Source: a virus
Length of the DNA: 64,000 bases
IMG/VR virus record: IMGVR_UViG_3300008117_000025
Span: 32,001 to 96,000 of that record
Direction: 5' to 3' (one strand)
A program made the translations under genes and the position numbers. The notes beneath the pieces were generated by a model, which made no database searches, was not told where the DNA came from, and worked only from the letters and a program-made list of their open reading frames with translations. Positions 2,770 to 57,023 of the stretch are shown here, one piece after another. The first letter of the stretch is position 1; every line of letters begins with the position of its first letter.

Positions 2770-3714
2770 TTAGGAAGAATGCATTTTATCACAAAGTTCT
2801 TGTTTATTATTATAGGGGCACCACTTACATGATTTTTCACCTACATTTTTAAGATACGACTTTATTTTAGGTTTACCAACTTCATCAAAGCAATCGCTAA
2901 TAAAAGATTGAAATTGTTCTATTGTTTGTTTTCGCTTGGTTTTTCCACTAGCGGGTTTGAATGACTGAACCCTGGGAATAGGGTATTCAGCTTGTTCATA
3001 GATTTTGCGCTTAACGATGAAGAATTCGACTTCGATTTGTTCAACGTCCCATCCAAATTGTCTAGCGAAGTATTCTTTGTATAGTAGGACTTGAGCAACT
3101 TTTTGATCGTCTCTTTTTTCACTGTCACTCCATCCACGTGTCGACGTTTTGATATCATATATATAAACTTTTTTTAAATCTTCATCATATAGAGCAAAGT
3201 CAATGAATGCTTTGTAGTAGATGTTATTTGCTATTTTTAAAAGTAAAGGTAATTCAATACCTAATAATTTCATTTTACGAATAGTGAATAATTTATTTCT
3301 ATTCTTTTTAATCCAACTCAACATAGTAATCCCATCATTGAAGAACTCACCCATTTCCTCAGCATTAGTGAAATGTAATCCTGCTGCTTTATATTCTTCA
3401 GCATACACTTCTCTAAATCGCTCTTGAAATAGAGCTTCTAGATCCATTTTATCAGCAGATGCTCCACTCTCATTATACATTGTAGTAATATATGATTGAA
3501 GTGTTTCATGAAAAGCCGTACCAAACACGGTATGAATACTAGCTTGGTACGGCTGTTTATTCTCTACATAGGTTAAATACCATTTGTGAGGGCATGAACT
3601 CCACATTGAGAATTGAGAGTATGAGACGCTACGCTGGAAACTATGATTTATTTCTGGCGGTTGGTAGTTTTTGATTTTTAGCTCGACCTCAGATAACTTT
3701 TTCTTGGCTGCCAC
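2770..3714 (-). CDS. PD-(D/E)xK RecB/Cas4-like exonuclease
   Basis: SYSQFSMWSSCPHKW, FGTAFHE, KAFID...IYDIKTS, QVLLY and C-terminal CKWCPY: the PDDEXK_1 pattern with an Fe-S-type Cys arrangement. Confidence 0.85.
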   Translation of the reverse strand: MAAKKKLSEVELKIKNYQPPEINHSFQRSVSYSQFSMWSSCPHKWYLTYVENKQPYQASIHTVFGTAFHETLQSYITTMYNESGASADKMDLEALFQERFREVYAEEYKAAGLHFTNAEEMGEFFNDGITMLSWIKKNRNKLFTIRKMKLLGIELPLLLKIANNIYYKAFIDFALYDEDLKKVYIYDIKTSTRGWSDSEKRDDQKVAQVLLYKEYFARQFGWDVEQIEVEFFIVKRKIYEQAEYPIPRVQSFKPASGKTKRKQTIEQFQSFISDCFDEVGKPKIKSYLKNVGEKSCKWCPYNNKQELCDKMHSS

Positions 3715-4748: not shown

Positions 4749-4931
4749 TTAGTATTTTTTTAATTCATCTTCTAACCATTCTTCTTTACTTTTCGGTTCG
4801 AATAGTTCTGCTGCTTTTGCAGCCTTTGGAGAAAGTAAAGCAATTAATTCAGCTTTATCAGCTTGATATTTGCTTATAAATTCTTCGTAATACTTATCAA
4901 CATTTTCTAATAACTCTTCTTTTGTTATCAT
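4749..4931 (-). CDS. hypothetical protein
   Basis: 60 aa. ATGA overlap with the clamp loader stop. Confidence 0.55.
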   Translation of the reverse strand: MITKEELLENVDKYYEEFISKYQADKAELIALLSPKAAKAAELFEPKSKEEWLEDELKKY

Positions 4932-5848
4932 ATTACTTGTTTTTTAGTTATTTCTAATATTTTTGCTATTGCAGCTGCAAAGTTAATTTCTTTATCTGGT
5001 ACTACACCTGCTCTCCAAATATGGTCATCTAATATAACTGATAATTCAGCATCGTGACCATAACTAAATTCAGATAATTGCTCAAACATATAGCGATAAG
5101 CAACTTGAAAATCGTCTACTTGCGCGTCAGCTACAAGTTGGCGAGCTTGATACCAAGCATCTTTATCGCGTTTTTTCAATATTTGAATTAGTTGTTTAGT
5201 CCAGTCTACATTAAGAGCAACCCATTCATATTTCCCATCTTTAACACCTGCTTGTAAATTCTTAATAATTGAACGAACATCAGGATAAAATTCCTTAACT
5301 AGTAATGCTACATTTTGAAGATCATATACTATACCTTCAACATCAAGGATATTAGTGCAAACATGCCTTGCAACATCACCTTTAGATGGTGGTTTTAGAA
5401 TATGAATTTCACAGCGTGATTGAAGAGGCTCAATCAAACGTTCAATGTAATTACAAGTAAGTACAAAGCGAGTTGTGATTGAATACTCTTCAATTAGATT
5501 ACGAAGCGCTGCTTGTGCGGGCTGAGTTAAGAAATCAGCCTCATCTAGAATGACAACCTTAAGCGGTTGGAATGTTGATGTGGAGGCAAATTGTTTTACT
5601 TTATCTCTAATAATATCAATACCATTTTCATCACTAGCATTAATGTAAAGATAATCACATTTAATGTTTTTAACAATTAATTTTGCTAGTGTGGTTTTAC
5701 CTGTACCTGCTGTACCGGTGAAGATGAAATGGGGTATATCGTTTTTAGATATACAATCGGAGATGCGGTTTTTAACCGCATCATTTCCGATGTATTGTTC
5801 TAATGTTTCTGATCTATATTTCTCAATCCAGAGAGAGTGTTGCTTCAT
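4928..5848 (-). CDS. clamp loader large subunit (gp44/RFC-like AAA+ ATPase)
   Basis: WIEKYRS, Walker A GTAGTGKT, INASD, Walker B ILDEAD, AQAALR, PLQSRC. Confidence 0.93.
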   Translation of the reverse strand: MKQHSLWIEKYRSETLEQYIGNDAVKNRISDCISKNDIPHFIFTGTAGTGKTTLAKLIVKNIKCDYLYINASDENGIDIIRDKVKQFASTSTFQPLKVVILDEADFLTQPAQAALRNLIEEYSITTRFVLTCNYIERLIEPLQSRCEIHILKPPSKGDVARHVCTNILDVEGIVYDLQNVALLVKEFYPDVRSIIKNLQAGVKDGKYEWVALNVDWTKQLIQILKKRDKDAWYQARQLVADAQVDDFQVAYRYMFEQLSEFSYGHDAELSVILDDHIWRAGVVPDKEINFAAAIAKILEITKKQVI

Positions 5849-5868
5849 AACTATTATTTTGTTTTAAA

Positions 5869-7479
5869 TTACATTCCAAATTGTGACAAATCAACCTCAT
5901 CTTTCTTTTTCTCAGCTGGTTTATCATGGATAACACATTCTGTCATTAGGAGTGTAACCGCAGCTGCTGCTGCGTTTTCAAGTGCACAACGTACTACTTT
6001 AGTAGGATCGATAATACCTGATTTGAAAGCATCTACTGTTCTTTCCTCGTTGATGTCAGGAACAGCGTTTTTTTCTTTTAGCGCTTGGATCCACTCATAA
6101 TAGTCTTCACCAGCATTAGTTAGAATTTTTTGGAGGGGTTGGTTACATGCTTTAAATACAATTTGACCTCCCAATCCAAAATCACTGTTATCTCTATTTT
6201 TAATTACATTTTTAGCATTAAATAGAGCCATACCTGCACCTGGTAAGATACCCTCTTCAAGTGCTGCTTTAGTTGCTTGGAGAGCATCGTCAATGCGGTC
6301 TTTTCTTTCCTTCATTTCTACTTCAGTACCTCCACCTACATTGATAATAGCTACACCACCTACAATCTTAGCAAGGCGATCTTGTAAACGCTCGATTTCG
6401 TATGGTGAATTTGCTTGATCGATTTGAGCTTTTAATTCATCAATGCGAGCATCTATTTTCTCAGTTTCACCTTTACCATCAACAATTGTAGTAGTATCTT
6501 TACCTACAGTGATTGTTCTAGCACTACCTAACCAGGACATATTAAACTTATCCAGTTTCATTCCTTTTTGTGGTGAAACCAAAGTACCACCAGTTACAAT
6601 AGCAATATCTTCAAGGATAAGTGTTCTACGATCTCCAAAGTCAGGTGCTTTGACAGCTACCACTTTTAAAATACCTCTCATTTTATTTACAATGAGTGTT
6701 GAAAGTGCTTCACCATCAATATCTTCAGCTACAATCAATAACGACTTATTATCTGAGGAAATGCGTTCGAGGATAGGGAGGAGATCTTTTACAGCGCTAA
6801 TTCTACCATCAAACAATAAAATAGAGGCATCAGTAAGTACTGCTTGCATTGTATTATTATCAGTCACCATATAAGGTGATTTATAACCTCTATCAAACTG
6901 AAGACCTTCTACTACTTCAAGTGATGTTTCACCTGAACGAGATTCTTCCACTGTTACAATACCATCTCTTCCTACTTTATCAATTGCTGTAGCAACTAAT
7001 TCTCCAATTTCCTCATCCCCATTAGCTGAGAGTGTAGCAATTTGTTTAATTTGCTTTTCATCAGTGATATCTACAGATGATGCTCTCAATTCAGATACTA
7101 CATCCTTAACTGCTTCTTCAATACCACGTTTTACTTGAGTAACATTAACTGATGGTTTTGATGTTGCCTCAAGTGCTTGGTCAGCAACAGACCATGCTAG
7201 TAGAGTTGAAGTAGTGGTTCCATCACCTGCTTGATCAACTGTTTTTTGTGCTGCTTGTTTAATTACAGTTGCAGCCATGTTTTCAATTGGATCTTCTAAA
7301 GTAATGGTTTTAGCAACAGTAACACCATCTTTAGTTGATGCTACTTGTCCATGATCTTTTTCAATCAATACATTACGCCCAAAAGGACCCATTGTTACTG
7401 TTACAGCATCGTGTACTTTTTTAATACCGGCTTGTAGTTTTTCTTTCGCTTCACGATCAAATTTAATTATTTTACTCAT
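5869..7479 (-). CDS. groEL: chaperonin GroEL (Cpn60)
   Basis: TMGPFGRNV, TKDGVTVAK, AGDGTTT, EGLQFDRGY, KAPDFGDRR, GIIDPTKV. Full length at 536 aa. Confidence 0.97.
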   Translation of the reverse strand: MSKIIKFDREAKEKLQAGIKKVHDAVTVTMGPFGRNVLIEKDHGQVASTKDGVTVAKTITLEDPIENMAATVIKQAAQKTVDQAGDGTTTSTLLAWSVADQALEATSKPSVNVTQVKRGIEEAVKDVVSELRASSVDITDEKQIKQIATLSANGDEEIGELVATAIDKVGRDGIVTVEESRSGETSLEVVEGLQFDRGYKSPYMVTDNNTMQAVLTDASILLFDGRISAVKDLLPILERISSDNKSLLIVAEDIDGEALSTLIVNKMRGILKVVAVKAPDFGDRRTLILEDIAIVTGGTLVSPQKGMKLDKFNMSWLGSARTITVGKDTTTIVDGKGETEKIDARIDELKAQIDQANSPYEIERLQDRLAKIVGGVAIINVGGGTEVEMKERKDRIDDALQATKAALEEGILPGAGMALFNAKNVIKNRDNSDFGLGGQIVFKACNQPLQKILTNAGEDYYEWIQALKEKNAVPDINEERTVDAFKSGIIDPTKVVRCALENAAAAAVTLLMTECVIHDKPAEKKKDEVDLSQFGM

Positions 7480-7482
7480 ATT

Positions 7483-7773
7483 TTATTTTTCTAAAATTGC
7501 CAATAAATCTTGTTCTTTCATTACAATGTATTCTTCCCCTTCAACGGTCATTTTGGTTCCACCAAAGGCAGGAAATACTGCTGTTTCACCTACTTGAACT
7601 CCAGTTGCAAGCCAAGTCCCCGTAACTGAATAGATTCCAGGTCCAACAGCTACTATTTCACCCATAAGTGGTTTTTCTTTTCCCATATCCGGTACTACAA
7701 TGTTTCCGTACATTGTTTCAGTTTCGTCTAATTGTTTAATCACAACGTGATTATAAAGTGGTTTTATCTTCAT
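7483..7773 (-). CDS. groES: co-chaperonin GroES (Cpn10)
   Basis: MKIKPLYNHVVIK, mobile loop YGNIVVPD, GEIVAVGPG, DLLAIL. Directly upstream of groEL. Confidence 0.95.
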   Translation of the reverse strand: MKIKPLYNHVVIKQLDETETMYGNIVVPDMGKEKPLMGEIVAVGPGIYSVTGTWLATGVQVGETAVFPAFGGTKMTVEGEEYIVMKEQDLLAILEK

Positions 7774-7960
7774 ATTTCATTTTTTGTTTGTGTGCAAATA
7801 AAGCATCTTCTAAAAGCTCAATAGGAAATTCAATTGGACCATATTCGCCATCTGAGCAGTCAAATATGACTTTATCTTCATAAAGATCTAGATGAGCTAT
7901 CCTACTATAGCGAGCTTCTGTCCTGAATACTGTTGTTAAATTTTTTATAAATCTATTCAT
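7751..7960 (-). CDS. hypothetical protein
   Basis: 69-aa ORF between hsp20 and groES, overlapping the groES start. Confidence 0.55.
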   Translation of the reverse strand: MNRFIKNLTTVFRTEARYSRIAHLDLYEDKVIFDCSDGEYGPIEFPIELLEDALFAHKQKMKYEDKTTL

Positions 7961-7965
7961 AACTT

Positions 7966-8490
7966 GAAGATAATGACAGGTCTTCGGTTTTCAAAACTTA
8001 TTTAATTGTAACCTTTTTAGGTGCTTTTTCCTCTGCATAAGGAATATCTATAATAAGCAAACCCTTATCCATATTGGCTTCTAATTTAGCTAAATTAAGT
8101 TTAGAAGCTACCTTCCATGCTAAATCAAAAGAGCGACGAGTAATACCTCTTTGTATATAGGATTTCTCTACTCCTTCTGTTACTTGTTTATCGTGGGTAA
8201 TTCTTAATATATCGGACTCTACTAGAATTTCTATATCTGATTTGTTAAGTCCTACTACTGCGAGTTCAAATCGTAAACCTGTTTCTGTTTCGTAAATATC
8301 AACTGGGTAGTTGATTTTGCTTTCAATTGTGTTAAATGTTGAGTTAGTGTCTAGGATATTTTTCCAAACGACATCAAATGGATCGAATGTCCAATTACTG
8401 TTCCAACGTGTTAGTTGTGTCATAGTTTTTGTTTTGTGCATCCCTAAGGTATGCGGTTAATTAATAGGTGAAGACCTGTCATGTATCTTC
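7966..8490. repeat. 20/21-nt inverted repeat pair (7966-7985 and 8470-8490) flanking hsp20
   Basis: 7966-7985 reads gaagataatgacaggtcttc. The reverse complement of 8470-8490 reads gaagatacatgacaggtcttc. They are identical except for one inserted base. Confidence 0.9.
7998..8423 (-). CDS. small heat-shock protein (Hsp20/alpha-crystallin)
   Basis: YPVDIYET, ELAVVG, SYIQRGITRRSF, A.MDKGLLII.IP. Probable start is MTQL at 8423 rather than 8441. Confidence 0.92.
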   Translation of the reverse strand: MTQLTRWNSNWTFDPFDVVWKNILDTNSTFNTIESKINYPVDIYETETGLRFELAVVGLNKSDIEILVESDILRITHDKQVTEGVEKSYIQRGITRRSFDLAWKVASKLNLAKLEANMDKGLLIIDIPYAEEKAPKKVTIK

Positions 8491-8509
8491 GATAATAAAT
8501 ATATACGGA

Positions 8510-9241
8510 TTAGTTTTTAGGTGGGAGATAATATGTGCTTTTGATAGAGTTTTCTGTATTGAATTCTAGTTTCAAAATACCATTCTCATCAAAATAGCCT
8601 ATTCCTTCTGCACCTTTATTTTCTGTAAATATTTCAAATAAGTAGTTTGCATTATACTGGAATTCAGATGATGGGAGTTCCATTTCAGCATTTGGTGTTT
8701 GGAAGCTAATTTTATCATCGTGTGATGTTTTGCCTCCTAATGTGAAATAAATACCTTTATCTCCTTCACCATTAAATAATGCTTGTATTTTCACTTCATC
8801 GCTACCTAATGCTTTCTTTGCTTTATTATATCGCTCAATAAATTCAGAATCAATATTAAATGAATATCCGAATGTGATTTGGGATTCATCTAACACCATT
8901 GTTTCCATAGGCATCATTCTTAGATCAGCAAGATGATAAGTCAAATCATATTCCATATCAGCAATATTCAATTTAGTGGAAGTGTTGTTTTTAGTTTCAA
9001 CGTTTAATTGAATGAATTGGTTTGTAATACCAATTAATTTAAGGAGTTTATTTGTATCATAAATTCCTAATGTACAATCGTCAAGATCAAAATTATCTGC
9101 TTCAACTGACCCTGCTAGATCTTTAGTTGCAGATGTAAATAATATCTGTACTTTCTTATCTTTAATTGTCCACTTTACCTTTTCGTGTATTCCATTCAAG
9201 TAATACTTCTCAATAACCGATACTAATAGTTGTTTTTCCAT
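8510..9241 (-). CDS. probable DNA sliding clamp (gp45/PCNA-like)
   Basis: 243 aa with a beta-rich pattern (GIYDTNKLLKLI; C-terminal STYYL). Located between PolB and the clamp-loader region. The call rests largely on size and context. Confidence 0.6.
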   Translation of the reverse strand: MEKQLLVSVIEKYYLNGIHEKVKWTIKDKKVQILFTSATKDLAGSVEADNFDLDDCTLGIYDTNKLLKLIGITNQFIQLNVETKNNTSTKLNIADMEYDLTYHLADLRMMPMETMVLDESQITFGYSFNIDSEFIERYNKAKKALGSDEVKIQALFNGEGDKGIYFTLGGKTSHDDKISFQTPNAEMELPSSEFQYNANYLFEIFTENKGAEGIGYFDENGILKLEFNTENSIKSTYYLPPKN

Positions 9242-9242
9242 A

Positions 9243-9581
9243 TTATTTCCAAAATAATTGTATTAAAATTATGCAAACTCCTAGGCCCAAACAAGTAAGT
9301 GTTTTAAGTGTTAAAGGTTCTCTAAATAAATAATGAGACATAAATGTAAATACTACTACTCCTATTCCAAAGCCTATTAAACGTGATGGCCATATTGCAC
9401 CGTCATATGCTTCTACAAAGTTTCTTACTGATGCCATAAAGACGTATGATATAGGGACTCCTAAAAATGCAGTTAAAATTGGATGATTTTTAAACCATTC
9501 TATTTTTAATTGTCCTTGTAACTGGACAAATGTAAGTATTTGGGCTAAAGTTCCAAGTAATATTCCGTATAGTATTTTCAT
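9243..9581 (-). CDS. 4-TM small membrane protein, DMT/SMR-like
   Basis: 112 aa with four hydrophobic segments and the C-terminal LFREPLTLKTLTCLGL pattern typical of DMT/SMR proteins. Confidence 0.6.
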   Translation of the reverse strand: MKILYGILLGTLAQILTFVQLQGQLKIEWFKNHPILTAFLGVPISYVFMASVRNFVEAYDGAIWPSRLIGFGIGVVVFTFMSHYLFREPLTLKTLTCLGLGVCIILIQLFWK

Positions 9582-12157
9582 TATATAAATTTAAAGAATT
9601 TATTTACTTTATCATTTAATGAGGGGAAATTCCATCCTAAATCCTCATAAATGCCTTTTAGTTTATTTAGTAGTGCTGATTCAAATCCCTCTTCCCTATC
9701 AGCAAATTCATCAATTAATTTAACAATGAAATCAGGATCATTGCCTGTAAATCCAATTACATCAATATTGTATGGATTGGTTTTTAATTGAATATATTTC
9801 ATTTTATCACCAACAGTAAACAATGGATATTGTTTTTGTACTTTTCTAAATTTAAGTAAGTCGTTATAGTAGATAGCTGCTTTAGTATTGATTGGGCATT
9901 TTAATTTTAATGTTGAAAATATTTCACCTGTTTTAGGAGCACGCTCAATATATGATTCTATATTCTTTACTCCTGTTGGTTTAGCTACCTCTTCAATAGG
10001 CATTGTTTTAACATATTTTTTAAAATCAATTATTTGCTGGTCGATTTCTGCTTTGGGTTTACCAAACATAATATCTTGAATTAGTTTCTCTCCAAATTTA
10101 GAATACATTGGAGTCATATTTGATTTCATCAAATCTAATCCTTTCATATCTAATTCATCAACAGTAACACCTTCTTTATTTACAATGTACATTGCATAAC
10201 GACGTTTACCTGCGAAATATCCCCTTTCAATAATTACCTCTTGCTTTAATTCAAAATAATGATCACGTTTACCTACATTAAAGTATTCTCTAGTTACACG
10301 ATTAATATTATCGTTTGCTGCTTTCTGTATTTCAGTAGTAATTTCTAGTGTTGCTTTAATATATTCATCCTTAGTTTTAGTTTCTGGGTAGCGTTGTAGT
10401 ACTAGATCCTTAACTTGAATGAATAGTGAATCGGTATCTGATGTTACAACGTAGTCTTTATCTTCAGTACCTAGTTGTTTATTCATCCATTCATTACAGA
10501 ATTTAATTGATTCTTGAGTTACACGTTGACCTGTTAATGTAATGGCTTTAGATATCATTTTATGACCATCAGTATAGCGCCAACCATTAATAGCATAACA
10601 ACCATAAACGTCATTTAATTTAATTTTATATGCGTGTTGTCTACGATTATAGAATTCACCTTTAACAGCATCACCTGATTTGTATGCTTTTTTCATTGCA
10701 TTTTTGTATTCAACGCGTTTGTTAAACCAATCCGTTAATACATCACATACTACTGATGAGCGATCTGTTCTAAACATAGCACCTGATGCTGCTAGTAACC
10801 AATTGTTTTCTTTAATAAGAGCAATTAGTGTTCCTACTTTTACAGTTGCTTGTTGTGTAGTTTGCTTTGGGGTTAGTTTTTCAATTGTAATTACATCTTC
10901 AGGATCCATTTGTTTTAGATCATCTAATGTCCAATTATTATCGTATTTATCTTTATTTACAATACGACCAACGAATGTCTCAATTCCAATATTTAAAGAA
11001 CGAATAATAGACGGATACAACGAGGTAAAGTCCAAATCAATAACCCACTCATATAATCCTGGTACTGGGTCTTTTAAGTAGCCTCCAGCATATTCTTCAT
11101 GTGCTTCTTTTAGTGATGGGTTTGTAGTTGTAGGTTTATTTGGTGAAACTATACCTTGGCGTTTTAGATAAGTAAGGATAGCTCCATCATTTAATACAGT
11201 TGATAGGTAGATCATTTCATAAGGCACATGACACAAATGACAAATAGCAACTGTTAATTCAATAAATTTAAATTTCTTTTCTAATTCAATAATAATTTCT
11301 ACGTCGCGAAGATTATATTCGATAAATTTATTTGGGTCTTCTCTAAATAATCTATCAAGATTACCTTCATAATCTATTTTACCTAAATTAACATATTTAG
11401 TTCCTATATCATTTAATTTATAGGATGGCTCGTTTTTAGGATTATATTTTTTATATAATAATAGATAATCAAGATGATTAATACCTCCTAATTCAATTGG
11501 TTGAGATGTATCCCATTCAGTAAATTTAATTTTGCGAATTGGAGATAAACGAGCAGCCTCATCTCTACCTAATACATTACATATTCTGTAGTAGAGATAT
11601 GGTACGTCAAAGAACCCACTATTCCATCCTGTAATAATAGTAGGGTCAACTGATTCCCATAATTCAAGAAATAGTGATAGTAATTCTTCCTCACTGCTGC
11701 AGGGTACTACTTGTCTATTATCTTCTTTTATTGCTTGTAGTTGCTTTTTCTCATCTAGAATAAGACAATAATATACTTTAGTTGTAGCATCATACAATGA
11801 AATTGAAGTAATTTTCATTGGTGCTGTCTTAATATATTCAGTAGTTAAAGCACCACCAATTTCACACTCAATATCAAAGTAAATAACATTTTGCCACTCA
11901 GGAGTGTCGTCACTATCTTTATACTTATCAATTAGTACTGCTGTTAGACGATCAATGTCTGATTCGTATAGATGGTTGTCATTCCATTCATATTTGGTAA
12001 CTACTTTTGCTAGTTTACCGTCTAATGTTGGAATAGTACCATTACTATCTATTTGATAGCGAGGGATAGTGTATTGAAATTCACTCCATCCATTTTTATC
12101 ATCACGTAAATGAAATTTGTAGTTCGGTTTCCCGTCGTAGTAGATTGCTTGATACAT
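9581..12157 (-). CDS. polB: family B DNA polymerase with 3'-5' exonuclease
   Basis: Exo motifs FDIECE, GWNSGFFDVPY and YNLRDV. Pol motifs DLDFTSLYPS, KIKLNDVYG, SDTDS and KRRY. No intein-sized insertion (858 aa). Confidence 0.96.
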   Translation of the reverse strand: MYQAIYYDGKPNYKFHLRDDKNGWSEFQYTIPRYQIDSNGTIPTLDGKLAKVVTKYEWNDNHLYESDIDRLTAVLIDKYKDSDDTPEWQNVIYFDIECEIGGALTTEYIKTAPMKITSISLYDATTKVYYCLILDEKKQLQAIKEDNRQVVPCSSEEELLSLFLELWESVDPTIITGWNSGFFDVPYLYYRICNVLGRDEAARLSPIRKIKFTEWDTSQPIELGGINHLDYLLLYKKYNPKNEPSYKLNDIGTKYVNLGKIDYEGNLDRLFREDPNKFIEYNLRDVEIIIELEKKFKFIELTVAICHLCHVPYEMIYLSTVLNDGAILTYLKRQGIVSPNKPTTTNPSLKEAHEEYAGGYLKDPVPGLYEWVIDLDFTSLYPSIIRSLNIGIETFVGRIVNKDKYDNNWTLDDLKQMDPEDVITIEKLTPKQTTQQATVKVGTLIALIKENNWLLAASGAMFRTDRSSVVCDVLTDWFNKRVEYKNAMKKAYKSGDAVKGEFYNRRQHAYKIKLNDVYGCYAINGWRYTDGHKMISKAITLTGQRVTQESIKFCNEWMNKQLGTEDKDYVVTSDTDSLFIQVKDLVLQRYPETKTKDEYIKATLEITTEIQKAANDNINRVTREYFNVGKRDHYFELKQEVIIERGYFAGKRRYAMYIVNKEGVTVDELDMKGLDLMKSNMTPMYSKFGEKLIQDIMFGKPKAEIDQQIIDFKKYVKTMPIEEVAKPTGVKNIESYIERAPKTGEIFSTLKLKCPINTKAAIYYNDLLKFRKVQKQYPLFTVGDKMKYIQLKTNPYNIDVIGFTGNDPDFIVKLIDEFADREEGFESALLNKLKGIYEDLGWNFPSLNDKVNKFFKFI

Positions 12158-12198: not shown

Positions 12199-12567
12199 TT
12201 AAACTTCATCTACTACATTAAAGGATATACCTGAGTTAGCAAATATATTTCTAGACAATTCAAAGATTGTAGTACCGGAGGAAGGACAAGCATCATTTCC
12301 AGATGCCCAATAAAATCCATATTGTGTTGATGTATTATTAGGATCTACTATTCTAACACGAATATTATTTACACTAGTACCTTGAGAAGCTTCTAAAGTA
12401 CAAGTAAAGTTATTAATTAAACTACCTATTAAATTAAATGTACTACCATTATCTACAGATACATAGAATTGTGGATCTATGCCTGGAGGATTTGTTGAGT
12501 CTAGTCGGCCATATAGGCTCACAGTATAGGTTACAGCAGCAGGTTGTATCCATATTTTAAAAGGCAT
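12199..12567 (-). CDS. hypothetical protein, probably virion-associated
   Basis: 122 aa, beta-rich and N/S/T-rich. Last gene of the fibre cluster. Confidence 0.6.
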   Translation of the reverse strand: MPFKIWIQPAAVTYTVSLYGRLDSTNPPGIDPQFYVSVDNGSTFNLIGSLINNFTCTLEASQGTSVNNIRVRIVDPNNTSTQYGFYWASGNDACPSSGTTIFELSRNIFANSGISFNVVDEV

Positions 12568-12578
12568 AAAGATATAAT

Positions 12579-28078: not shown

Positions 28079-28129
28079 GAAAATATATATTTACTACATA
28101 TAAATATACATCTCTATGGGCAGCTTTAT

Positions 28130-31546: not shown

Positions 31547-32446
31547 TTACGAATTGTGTTCTGCTAATACTTTTTCTACATGGGCTTTAGCTACTTCCCA
31601 ACTAACAGGTCCGGTTTCATCAGCATAATCTACAGGATCAGGACGACCTAATCTAATAAATGCTTCAATACGCTCTACTGATGCTGCTGATTTGTAATCT
31701 GAAAACCAATATCCTTCTTTTGATTCATATAAAACTATATCTCCATCTAATGTTTGAGCTTTAGGAATCCAAATTGGTTTATAAGATGTATTTGTGCGCT
31801 TATAGACTTCATCAAAGTTAAGACCAAGTTTTTGACAAGCCAACTCTCCATCTTTTAAGATATCAAATTTATTTACTTCAAGATAAGGAGTATAAATTGA
31901 TACTAAATGTGAATCCCAGTTACCAATAACAAAAGCATCAAAATCAGCATCTCTAAATTCTTGTCTACAATCAGGATAAATAGCATGATCACCAGCATGG
32001 ATTCCCATTGCAATTTCTACTGGTTGTCCTGTAGTACAATCATCTCCAATATTCTTAGTTGCAATTGAAAGTGCTACTGCTTGAATCAATGAACTAAAGA
32101 TCTTGTTGCGATTAGGAACAACTGTATCTTTCATGTTGTCTTGTTCATAATGTCCTTCAGGAACATCATCACCACCTTCAACAAGTGATGAATTAAGTAG
32201 TTTAGATAATCCATCTAATTTGATTACTTGGTGAGTTACATTACCATAAATTGCTTTTCCACCACAACCACAGTTTTTTTCATTTACATAAGCAACTAAT
32301 GATGCTGCTCGTTCTAATTCTACTTTATGTTTTTGACCATAATCAAAACCTAAAGCTGTTACATCGTAACCGTTTGCAAGGAGGTGGAGGAGTAGTGTTG
32401 ATGAATCCATTCCACCTGACAGTGATAATACTGCTTGTTTTCTCAT
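31547..32446 (-). CDS. queC: 7-cyano-7-deazaguanine synthase
   Basis: PP-loop SLSGGMDSST, FDYGQKHKVEL, VVPNRN, YPDCRQEF and TPYL. Confidence 0.93.
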   Translation of the reverse strand: MRKQAVLSLSGGMDSSTLLLHLLANGYDVTALGFDYGQKHKVELERAASLVAYVNEKNCGCGGKAIYGNVTHQVIKLDGLSKLLNSSLVEGGDDVPEGHYEQDNMKDTVVPNRNKIFSSLIQAVALSIATKNIGDDCTTGQPVEIAMGIHAGDHAIYPDCRQEFRDADFDAFVIGNWDSHLVSIYTPYLEVNKFDILKDGELACQKLGLNFDEVYKRTNTSYKPIWIPKAQTLDGDIVLYESKEGYWFSDYKSAASVERIEAFIRLGRPDPVDYADETGPVSWEVAKAHVEKVLAEHNS

Positions 32447-34099: not shown

Positions 34100-34311
34100 T
34101 ATTTTTCTTTTTTTATTGTTGTTGTTGATTTAAATAGAATTGTTGATAGTAGATTTAATCCTATTGCTTGCCACAATGTAATTTCAGGTAATTTGAATAT
34201 TACAGGCATTAACCAATTCCACAACAACATCAAAGGATAACCTAATATTACTATAACTATAGCTACCATTCCTAAAAACACAGCAATTGCTTCAAAACTA
34301 TTCTTCATCAT
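34099..34311 (-). CDS. small membrane protein
   Basis: Two hydrophobic segments and LWNWLMP..F.LPEITLWQAIGL. Confidence 0.6.
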   Translation of the reverse strand: MMKNSFEAIAVFLGMVAIVIVILGYPLMLLWNWLMPVIFKLPEITLWQAIGLNLLSTILFKSTTTIKKEK

Positions 34312-34483
34312 TTATTTGATTTTCTATTTCGCTTATATCTAATTTTACTTCAGCTAACGATTGTTCTATTTGAGATACTATTTCAAGTAACTCTCCTAAC
34401 ATTAATCCTTGTTGTTGTGGATTTGCAGTTTCAATACTTTTTTGTATTTCCAAAACGCGTTCGTGTATTTTATCTGTTTCCAT
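34298..34483 (-). CDS. acidic coiled-coil hypothetical protein
   Basis: 61 aa, overlap-coupled on both sides. Confidence 0.5.
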   Translation of the reverse strand: METDKIHERVLEIQKSIETANPQQQGLMLGELLEIVSQIEQSLAEVKLDISEIENQINDEE

Positions 34484-49921: not shown

Positions 49922-49953
49922 GGTTTATCTATTTTATACGAATAAATATTTAA

Positions 49954-52470: not shown

Positions 52471-52498
52471 GATATAATGTTACATCATATAAATATTT

Positions 52499-52523
52499 AA
52501 AGCGCCTATTTTTTAGGCGCTTT
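52499..52523 (-). terminator. hairpin at the end of the gp51-like ORF
   Basis: AAAGCGCCTA-AAAAA-TAGGCGCTTT, overlapping the TAG. The U-tract is short. Confidence 0.55.
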
Positions 52524-53505: not shown

Positions 53506-53541
53506 AAACTATTTTATTTGTGTATATATAAATATATGCAG

Positions 53542-56969: not shown

Positions 56970-56991
56970 AAAATTGTTTTTGTTTCGTATA

Positions 56992-57023
56992 TAAATATAT
57001 AATAAGATTATGAGACAACCAAA
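56992..57023 (-). promoter_or_regulatory. TTTG-N20-TATATTTA promoter, also containing ATATTTAT
   Basis: Both motif classes coincide about 22 nt upstream of the ATG at 56969. Confidence 0.55.

Follow-up and report, generated by a model that had tools for sequence, protein, structure and literature searches.

The start of the hsp20 message in the phage studied here very probably base-pairs with a stretch of RNA situated just past the gene. The two segments form an inverted repeat which brackets hsp20 and which about 150 related, uncultured phages from freshwater have retained (153 of 159 loci), a change in one arm being matched by a change in the other. Judged by these comparisons, the element is a cis-acting RNA structure, and pairing on the mRNA strand is shown to be under selection. 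It belongs to a known kind of structure, the long-range cis pairing of bacterial and phage mRNAs, of which it is a new and well-supported variant. Such pairings are hard to find and few have the backing of covariation. With about 90 distinct arm pairs, independent compensatory classes and strand-specific wobble pairing, the hsp20 element is among the better-supported candidates for an mRNA helix that encloses a cistron, and it provides a testable case of gene-specific control within a phage operon of three chaperones (Hsp20, GroES, and GroEL).

The element was analyzed in a window of 64,000 nucleotides, i.e., positions 32,001 to 96,000 of the IMG/VR record IMGVR_UViG_3300008117_000025, and all positions given below are those of this window. 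The source virus record is complete and comprises 182,846 bp with terminal repeats. All genes of the region lie on the minus strand. A gene for a family-B DNA polymerase (polB, 9581-12157) is followed by two ORFs without a family match (9243-9581 and 8510-9241), hsp20, a small gene of 69 aa termed ORF69 (7751-7960), groES (7483-7773), groEL (5869-7479), and an AAA+ clamp-loader-like gene (4928-5848). The longest hsp20 ORF, as called, spans 7998-8441. Since all Hsp20 homologs start with MTQ, matching the ATG at 8423 and not the one at 8441, the second ATG is probably the true start and the first six codons of the longest ORF are probably noncoding leader. The gene delimited in this way by homology (7998-8423, with the stop codon at 7998-8000) encodes 141 aa and matches the Pfam family HSP20 (2e-11) and PHROG 432 (7e-17). 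A search of Pfam and PHROG returned no match for ORF69, homologs of which are present in some loci only. Within 5500-9500, no intrinsic terminator was predicted; a single transcript therefore probably carries hsp20 together with the small ORF and groES-groEL.

The original prediction had placed one arm of the repeat at 8490-8470 in the leader and the other at 7985-7966 past the gene, and had described a 20-bp duplex with a single bulge. All of this was reproduced exactly. On the mRNA strand (minus), the 5' arm (8470-8490) and the 3' arm (7966-7985) match over 13 exact pairs, a 1-nt bulge consisting of one additional C in the 5' arm, and 7 further pairs, which add up to 20 bp. The arms are 484 nt apart. 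The 3' arm begins 12 nt past the hsp20 stop codon, after a spacer (7986-7997, minus strand) that holds a -35-like TTGAAA (7994-7989), and it stops 5 nt short of the start codon of ORF69. The 5' arm is located approximately 46-56 nt upstream of the hsp20 start, which is not covered. When 556 nt were folded, the long-range helix appeared in both the MFE and the centroid structure (z = -4.3), with a predicted energy of about -32 kcal/mol and a predicted pair probability of about 1, which is still about 0.99 at 60°C.

By our own estimate, a 13-nt inverted match at a distance of less than 600 nt is moderately unlikely to occur by chance in one AT-rich window. It is the conservation at the same positions in 153 of 159 distinct loci that sets the repeat beyond chance. 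The 13-mer of the arm has no further copy in the window at up to two mismatches, and an 11-mer of the arm was found nowhere in the whole 182,846-bp genome beyond the two arms themselves. Neither a direct repeat nor a target-site duplication flanks the arms, and no other comparable inverted repeat bracketing a gene was found in the window. A 16-nt inverted repeat (34214-34229 and 34410-34425, 94% complementary, 180 nt apart) is located amid small ORFs at 34.1-34.7 kb. Rfam covariance models run over 7400-9000 gave only two sub-threshold chance matches; the element is absent from Rfam and was not found in the literature searched.

Four scans, three of IMG/VR and one of JGI metagenome contigs, were run for proteins related to Hsp20 or to the product of the ORF preceding it and yielded 159 non-identical loci with both flanks, nearly all of them from freshwater samples. 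In each locus, the 100 nt upstream of hsp20 were aligned to the reverse-complemented 70 nt that follow the gene; every mismatch was treated alike, and the threshold was a score of at least 10. This score was reached by 129 of the 133 loci of the first set, compared with 10 of 133 after shuffling, and by 153 of the 159 loci of the full set, in the same two places. In 149 loci, the complementarity includes an exact core of 9-15 nt (median 12); its 5' copy ends 53-60 nt before the hsp20 ATG (median 56) and its 3' copy starts 7-16 nt after the stop codon (median 12). The near-continuous helix measures 16 bp in the median (IQR 12-18); helices of 20 bp or more occur in 38 of the 159 loci.

Gene order was read in about 50 loci, from about 40 different contigs, that had been fetched with long flanks. 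The shared order is polB, a small ORF, an ORF of 243 aa, hsp20, in some cases a small ORF, groES, groEL, and the clamp loader gene. Of this order, a few loci that are more distant show just hsp20-groES-groEL or just groES-groEL, and one locus (L035) showed none of these neighbors. In every locus with recognizable neighbors, hsp20 lies on the same strand as these, and neither inversion nor absence of hsp20 was encountered in the approximately 50 loci with long flanks. Three loci that seemingly lacked the gene proved to contain a version of 189 aa. In some close relatives (L042, 3162-3731; L043, 3320-3886; L045, 3320-3901), Hsp20 carries an N-terminal extension of about 50 aa that is rich in Ser, Thr, Gly, and Asn, and the arms are unchanged. 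The distant hsp20 of L035 (46% identity) shows a different arrangement: the 3' partner of its leader lies inside a G+C-rich terminator hairpin with a U run behind it (approximately 3450-3490). Either competition with the forming terminator or pairing with the 3' end of the mRNA is conceivable for this leader. The closest isolates, Methylophilales phage Melnitz and cyanomyoviruses, share at most 30% protein identity and exhibit no flanking repeat, and a pattern scan of GTDB genomes for cellular homologs yielded none that was confirmed.

The original prediction had also named compensatory covariation of the arms in the hsp20 loci of related phages as a way to verify a long-range panhandle, and compensatory changes are indeed found in the repeats of these 153 loci. 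The first 133 loci alone contain 91 distinct arm pairs. One large group carries the core GACAGG/CCUGUC and another GGUAGG/CCUACC; rarer core classes, including the G+C-rich pair in L035, are complementary as well, and Hsp20 relatives at 46-57% identity exhibit further core variants that are still complementary. In an alignment of 86 sequences generated with MAFFT (A2, in which columns 47-68 correspond to the 5' arm), the helix formed by columns 56-68 and 690-699 is 95.7% paired and shows changes on both sides at 7 of its 10 pairs. For example, the pair 57-698 is AU in 47 sequences, GC in 38, and GU in one, the pair 58-697 is CG in 46 and UA in 40, and the pair 64-693 is UA in 54, CG in 19, and UG in 11. 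Sliding the partner by 1-3 columns lowers the pairing to 30-46%. None of 500 column shuffles reached the covariation score observed for this helix, though shuffle controls overstate significance because the sequences are related; more weight rests on the control with a slid partner and on the existence of several independent core classes.

The nature of the remaining mismatches shows on which molecule the pairing is maintained. Register shifts at bulges inflate column-based mismatch counts in A2, and mismatches were therefore tallied from unbiased pairwise alignments instead, counting isolated ones with at least two matches on each side. Among isolated transition mismatches on the hsp20 sense strand, 37 cells are G.U and 2 are A.C, which corresponds to 13 against 2 when distinct sequence contexts are counted (binomial p = 0.007). 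Were the repeat maintained as duplex DNA, G.T-type and A.C-type mismatches would be expected to arise from transitions with equal frequency. Since the mismatches are nearly all G.U on the mRNA strand, they argue for RNA pairing and not for a DNA site. A strand-specific fold of single-stranded DNA would be expected to show the same bias, but is unlikely for a helix that spans about 500 nt. Conserved complementarity, compensatory covariation and the G.U bias on the mRNA strand thus bear out the panhandle.

Besides pairing with each other, the arms can fold on their own, and the local hairpin proposed for each arm, with the alternative folds that it implies, was likewise recovered. In the window, these hairpins have predicted energies of -4.9 kcal/mol (5' arm; 5-bp stem and 11-nt loop) and -2.9 kcal/mol (3' arm) at 37°C and are closed by the 5-nt arm ends. 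The loop of the 5' hairpin (9-11 nt) is fully complementary to that of the 3' hairpin. Across the loci, the outer 3-5 nt of each arm are mutually complementary within that arm and co-vary: the local stem of the 5' arm (columns 47-50/64-68) is 87% paired and includes double changes, and that of the 3' arm is 86% paired. Columns 47-68, for instance, hold GC in 37 sequences, AU in 24, and GU in 15, and columns 50-64 hold AU in 61 and GC in 16. When local and long-range pairs are examined together as quartets, most sequences satisfy both, with whole sets changing jointly (e.g., AU/AU to GC/GC). Sequences that tell the local hairpins apart from the outer portion of the duplex are few, which weakens this line of evidence: the local pairs alone are satisfied in 8 sequences and the long-range pairs alone in 6. 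The simplest reading of this pattern is that both the local and the long-range form exist at some stage. RNAalifold, applied to the leader alone, recovered a second hairpin, HP2, and not the 5' hairpin, probably as a consequence of MAFFT shifting the register of the arm.

HP2 (8438-8454, minus strand) consists of a 4-bp lower stem, a bulged A, a 2-bp upper stem, and a tetraloop. It is 91% paired with changes on both sides at five of its six pairs, while the loop varies between UUAG, UUCG, and GNRA types. The hairpin is unique in the window, and a C/A-rich tract runs from it to the start codon. A similar hairpin and a CA-rich tract precede hsp20 in the cyanomyoviruses S-PRM1, P-RSM1, and S-SM2 (L283, L284, and L285), which exhibit no flanking repeat. 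HP2 may therefore represent an older, separate element of hsp20 leaders. In several clades (e.g., L006, L010, L025, L053, and L103), a canonical Shine-Dalgarno sequence, AGGAGG, located 7 nt before the ATG, replaces the C/A-rich tract, which argues that these phages at least infect hosts using Shine-Dalgarno-led initiation. An inner helix between the C/A-rich leader and a GUUUUG after the stop codon was considered and rejected, as the leader tract is conserved in clades without the 3' partner.

Additional conserved sequences adjoin the arms. After the 5' arm, 104 of 149 loci carry the motif GTTAYG, and 79 of 149 carry GTTATG after the 3' arm; in the window, the latter is located at 7958-7963 (minus strand) and its ATG is the next start codon, that of ORF69. 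The motif constitutes a direct repeat beside the inverted arms, for which the pairing model does not account. Where the version with ATG follows the 5' arm, it would open a mini-ORF of 2-6 codons ending in the conserved TTAATTAA, but many loci have ACG instead.

The promoter-like motif that had been noted ahead of the leader is present as the AT-rich TATATATTTAT (8495-8505, minus strand), separated from the 5' arm by 4 nt. At least eight other ORFs of the window are closely preceded, on their coding strand, by the motif with at most one mismatch, leaving leaders of about 20 nt, and because of this recurrence it is probably a phage promoter class. Similar copies on the minus strand (2753-2763, 12566-12576, 28100-28110, 49942-49952, 52489-52499, 53528-53538, and 56991-57001) are found about 20 nt before the starts of minus-strand ORFs, several of which are large and structural-looking, and two copies have terminator-like hairpins before them. 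All 149 loci scored have an AT-rich motif of this kind within the 45 nt that precede the 5' core, and across loci the 5' arm begins 4-14 nt after the promoter-like motif. A second, sigma70-like site (TTGAAA-N16-TATCTT, 9/12 matches; 7967-7994, minus strand) overlaps the 3' arm of the window, and its -10 box ends 6 nt before the ATG of ORF69. Such a site could give rise to a leaderless downstream transcript without either arm. The same arrangement is present in only about 60 of 159 loci and overall barely exceeds shuffled sequences, and an embedded promoter was therefore rejected as a universal explanation of the 3' arm.

From these observations, a model is proposed which combines leader-intercistronic pairing, a metastable hairpin and RNase processing, and which we rate, as a whole, at somewhat less than an even chance of being correct. 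Its first step is shown by the comparative data: in transcripts covering hsp20, a segment of about 20 nt at or near the 5' end of the leader pairs with its complement just past the hsp20 stop codon and thereby closes the entire hsp20 cistron (about 480-500 nt) into a loop. During transcription, the 5' segment would first fold into a small metastable hairpin. Once the 3' arm is made, a loop-loop contact would nucleate the much more stable extended duplex, which would serve as the substrate of a host double-strand-specific RNase of the RNase III type. Cleavage would cut hsp20 from the hsp20-(ORF69)-groES-groEL transcript and uncouple its stability and yield from those of the downstream genes.

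A processing or insulation site for a double-strand RNase within the operon is considered the most likely function of the duplex, a tentative assignment that we regard as possible and hardly as probable; the next likeliest effects would be that the start of the following cistron is masked and that the 5' end is protected. Compared with the stem of roughly two helical turns (about 20 bp or more) expected for RNase III, the duplex in the window has 20 bp with one bulge, and the family median is 16 bp and 38 of 159 loci reach 20 bp. Two observations count against the RNase step: no RNase III gene was found in the phage genome, and the median helix is short for a classical RNase III site. More generally, the element might, again tentatively, define a new class of phage cis-regulatory RNA, a "cistron clamp," in which a promoter-proximal metastable hairpin captures a complementary hairpin 500 nt downstream and loops out the chaperone cistron. 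The clamp would switch the fate of the late hsp20-groES-groEL transcript via processing, translation of the next cistron, or both. If true, a folding pathway comparable to that of hok mRNA would be used for sub-operonic control in a large family of uncultured freshwater T4-like phages.

Among the alternatives, translational masking or coupling survives best, although it is unlikely. On transcripts that include hsp20, the duplex would here hide the start of the downstream gene (ORF69 or, in loci lacking it, groES), and this gene would be translated only once the duplex opens or only from another transcript. The 3' core is indeed close to the next ATG (median distance 11 nt; at most 12 nt in 86 of 146 loci and at most 30 nt in 134 of 146), yet short intergenic spacers make such proximity nearly unavoidable, and the arms are unchanged in loci without ORF69, where 13 to more than 30 nt separate them from the next start. 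In several clades, the sequence ahead of the 5' arm could base-pair with the GTTAT at the start of the downstream gene. A scheme resembling this division between a masked and a second transcript is that of the T4 genes e and soc. The sigma70-like site over the 3' arm of the window would supply a second transcript free of both arms, but it is weak and confined to the roughly 60 loci mentioned above.

Next in rank, and unlikely as well, is a stabilizing closed loop, in which pairing at the very 5' end would guard the hsp20 message from 5'-end-dependent decay, bring the stop codon near the leader, and raise the yield. The short distance from the promoter-like motif (4-14 nt) would place the 5' arm at or near the 5' end of the RNA, and in L035, where the 3' partner lies in the terminator hairpin, a true pairing of the 5' and 3' ends of a monocistronic mRNA would result. 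In hok, the tac/fbi stem strongly stabilizes the full-length mRNA (PMC9841398). However, a simple local 5' hairpin would protect the message equally well, and the conservation of a partner 500 nt away is left unaccounted for. Processing by a double-strand RNase is preferred over both masking and stabilization as the function of the hsp20 duplex.

Two further explanations are highly improbable, to the same degree. In a split terminator or attenuator, the long-range helix, followed by a U-rich run in some loci, would receive its upstream half from the leader. T runs do follow the 3' arm in some loci (e.g., L020, L028, and L121) and the 3' arm of L035 overlaps a true terminator, but most loci, including that of the window, have no U run after the arm, and with a partner 500 nt away the helix is kinetically unlikely to form within the time window of termination. 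The other explanation places the element at the DNA level, as the ends of a mobile or invertible cassette, as paired operators, or as a strand-specific single-stranded DNA fold. The original prediction had offered an inserted or invertible cassette as an alternative, and the repeat does bracket exactly one gene. Furthermore, a purine-rich core (AGG in the 5' arm) is kept across all classes and could reflect recognition by a protein, and hairpins of single-stranded DNA also tolerate G.T. On the other hand, hsp20 has a constant orientation within a syntenic neighborhood wherever the flanks are readable and is never absent, no target-site duplication and no further genomic copies of the motif exist, and the arms diverge freely, with compensatory drift that keeps them complementary. 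Double-stranded DNA sites would not be expected to yield G.U over A.C in a ratio of 37:2. Owing to the G.U bias, the constant orientation, the lack of direct repeats and the free drift of the arms, the cassette, transposon-end and operator readings are rejected.

The least credible explanation is an RNA thermometer, the temperature switch of the original prediction, in which the duplex or the hairpins would melt upon heat shock and turn hsp20 on: small heat-shock genes are classic targets of such elements and the local hairpins are weak (-4.9 and -2.9 kcal/mol), but the long-range duplex, predicted to remain paired at 60°C, does not behave as a melting thermometer, neither arm covers the ribosome-binding region or start of hsp20 (the 5' core lies a median of 56 nt upstream), and the arms form perfect or near-perfect helices in contrast to the typically mismatch-rich helices of thermometers.

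The comparison with known systems leads to the same distinctions. Thermometers of small heat-shock genes (ROSE, fourU, and the cyanobacterial hsp17 leader) sequester the Shine-Dalgarno sequence or AUG in weak helices that melt at 30-45°C. They share with the present element a structured leader upstream of a small heat-shock gene, whereas the hsp20 duplex is strong and distant from the start; neither a Shine-Dalgarno sequence or start codon inside the structure nor marginal stability was found, the stability being a prediction. The CIRCE/HrcA operator, an inverted repeat of 9 bp with a 9-bp spacer upstream of groESL or dnaK, was discarded as a candidate, since the arms of the hsp20 element are 484 nt apart and unrelated to the CIRCE consensus in sequence. 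RNase III stems bracket the 16S and 23S rRNAs, and RNase III sites are located between the early genes of phage T7. As in these cases, complementary segments flank an RNA unit that a double-strand RNase could excise; however, the rRNA stems are longer, the T7 sites are local hairpins, and cleavage of the hsp20 element is only proposed.

Closer parallels exist among mRNAs with long-range cis pairing. In hok mRNA, the 5' element pairs first just downstream, in a metastable 5' hairpin, and later with the 3' end (tac/fbi pairing; PMC9841398). Long-distance 5'/3' pairing, the prior local pairing of the same 5' nucleotides and coupled covariation are common to both systems, and in the hsp20 element the long-range as well as the local pairs co-vary, as expected for alternative partners of the hok type. 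The fold-back of hok exerts an indirect lock on the ribosome-binding site, and a toxin and an antisense RNA are part of the system. In contrast, the hsp20 arms are far from the start (median 56 nt), the ORF encodes an Hsp20 chaperone, the 3' partner is intercistronic except in L035, and an antisense partner is not evident. The element may be the second case in nature in which a metastable hairpin gives way, in a programmed manner, to a long-range duplex. The icaR mRNA, whose 5' and 3' UTRs pair with each other, likewise forms an RNase III substrate (PMC3868564). The icaR pairing covers the Shine-Dalgarno region and blocks the initiation of its own gene, whereas the pairing of the hsp20 element avoids the initiation region of hsp20. 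The closest known case is yabJ-spoVG of Staphylococcus aureus, in which the yabJ 5'UTR pairs with the yabJ-spoVG intercistronic region to form an RNase III substrate (bioRxiv 10.64898/2026.09.18.752551). Experiments on that system have demonstrated both cleavage by RNase III and a repressed downstream gene, whereas for hsp20 it is the pairing that is established, from comparative data. With yabJ-spoVG and icaR, the hsp20 element shares a selected complementarity between leader and 3' region (seen in 153 of 159 loci and marked by compensatory changes and G.U bias), and with yabJ-spoVG also the prospect of gene-specific control inside an operon; it differs from yabJ-spoVG in being located in a phage, in enclosing a chaperone gene, and in the additional covariation of its local hairpins.
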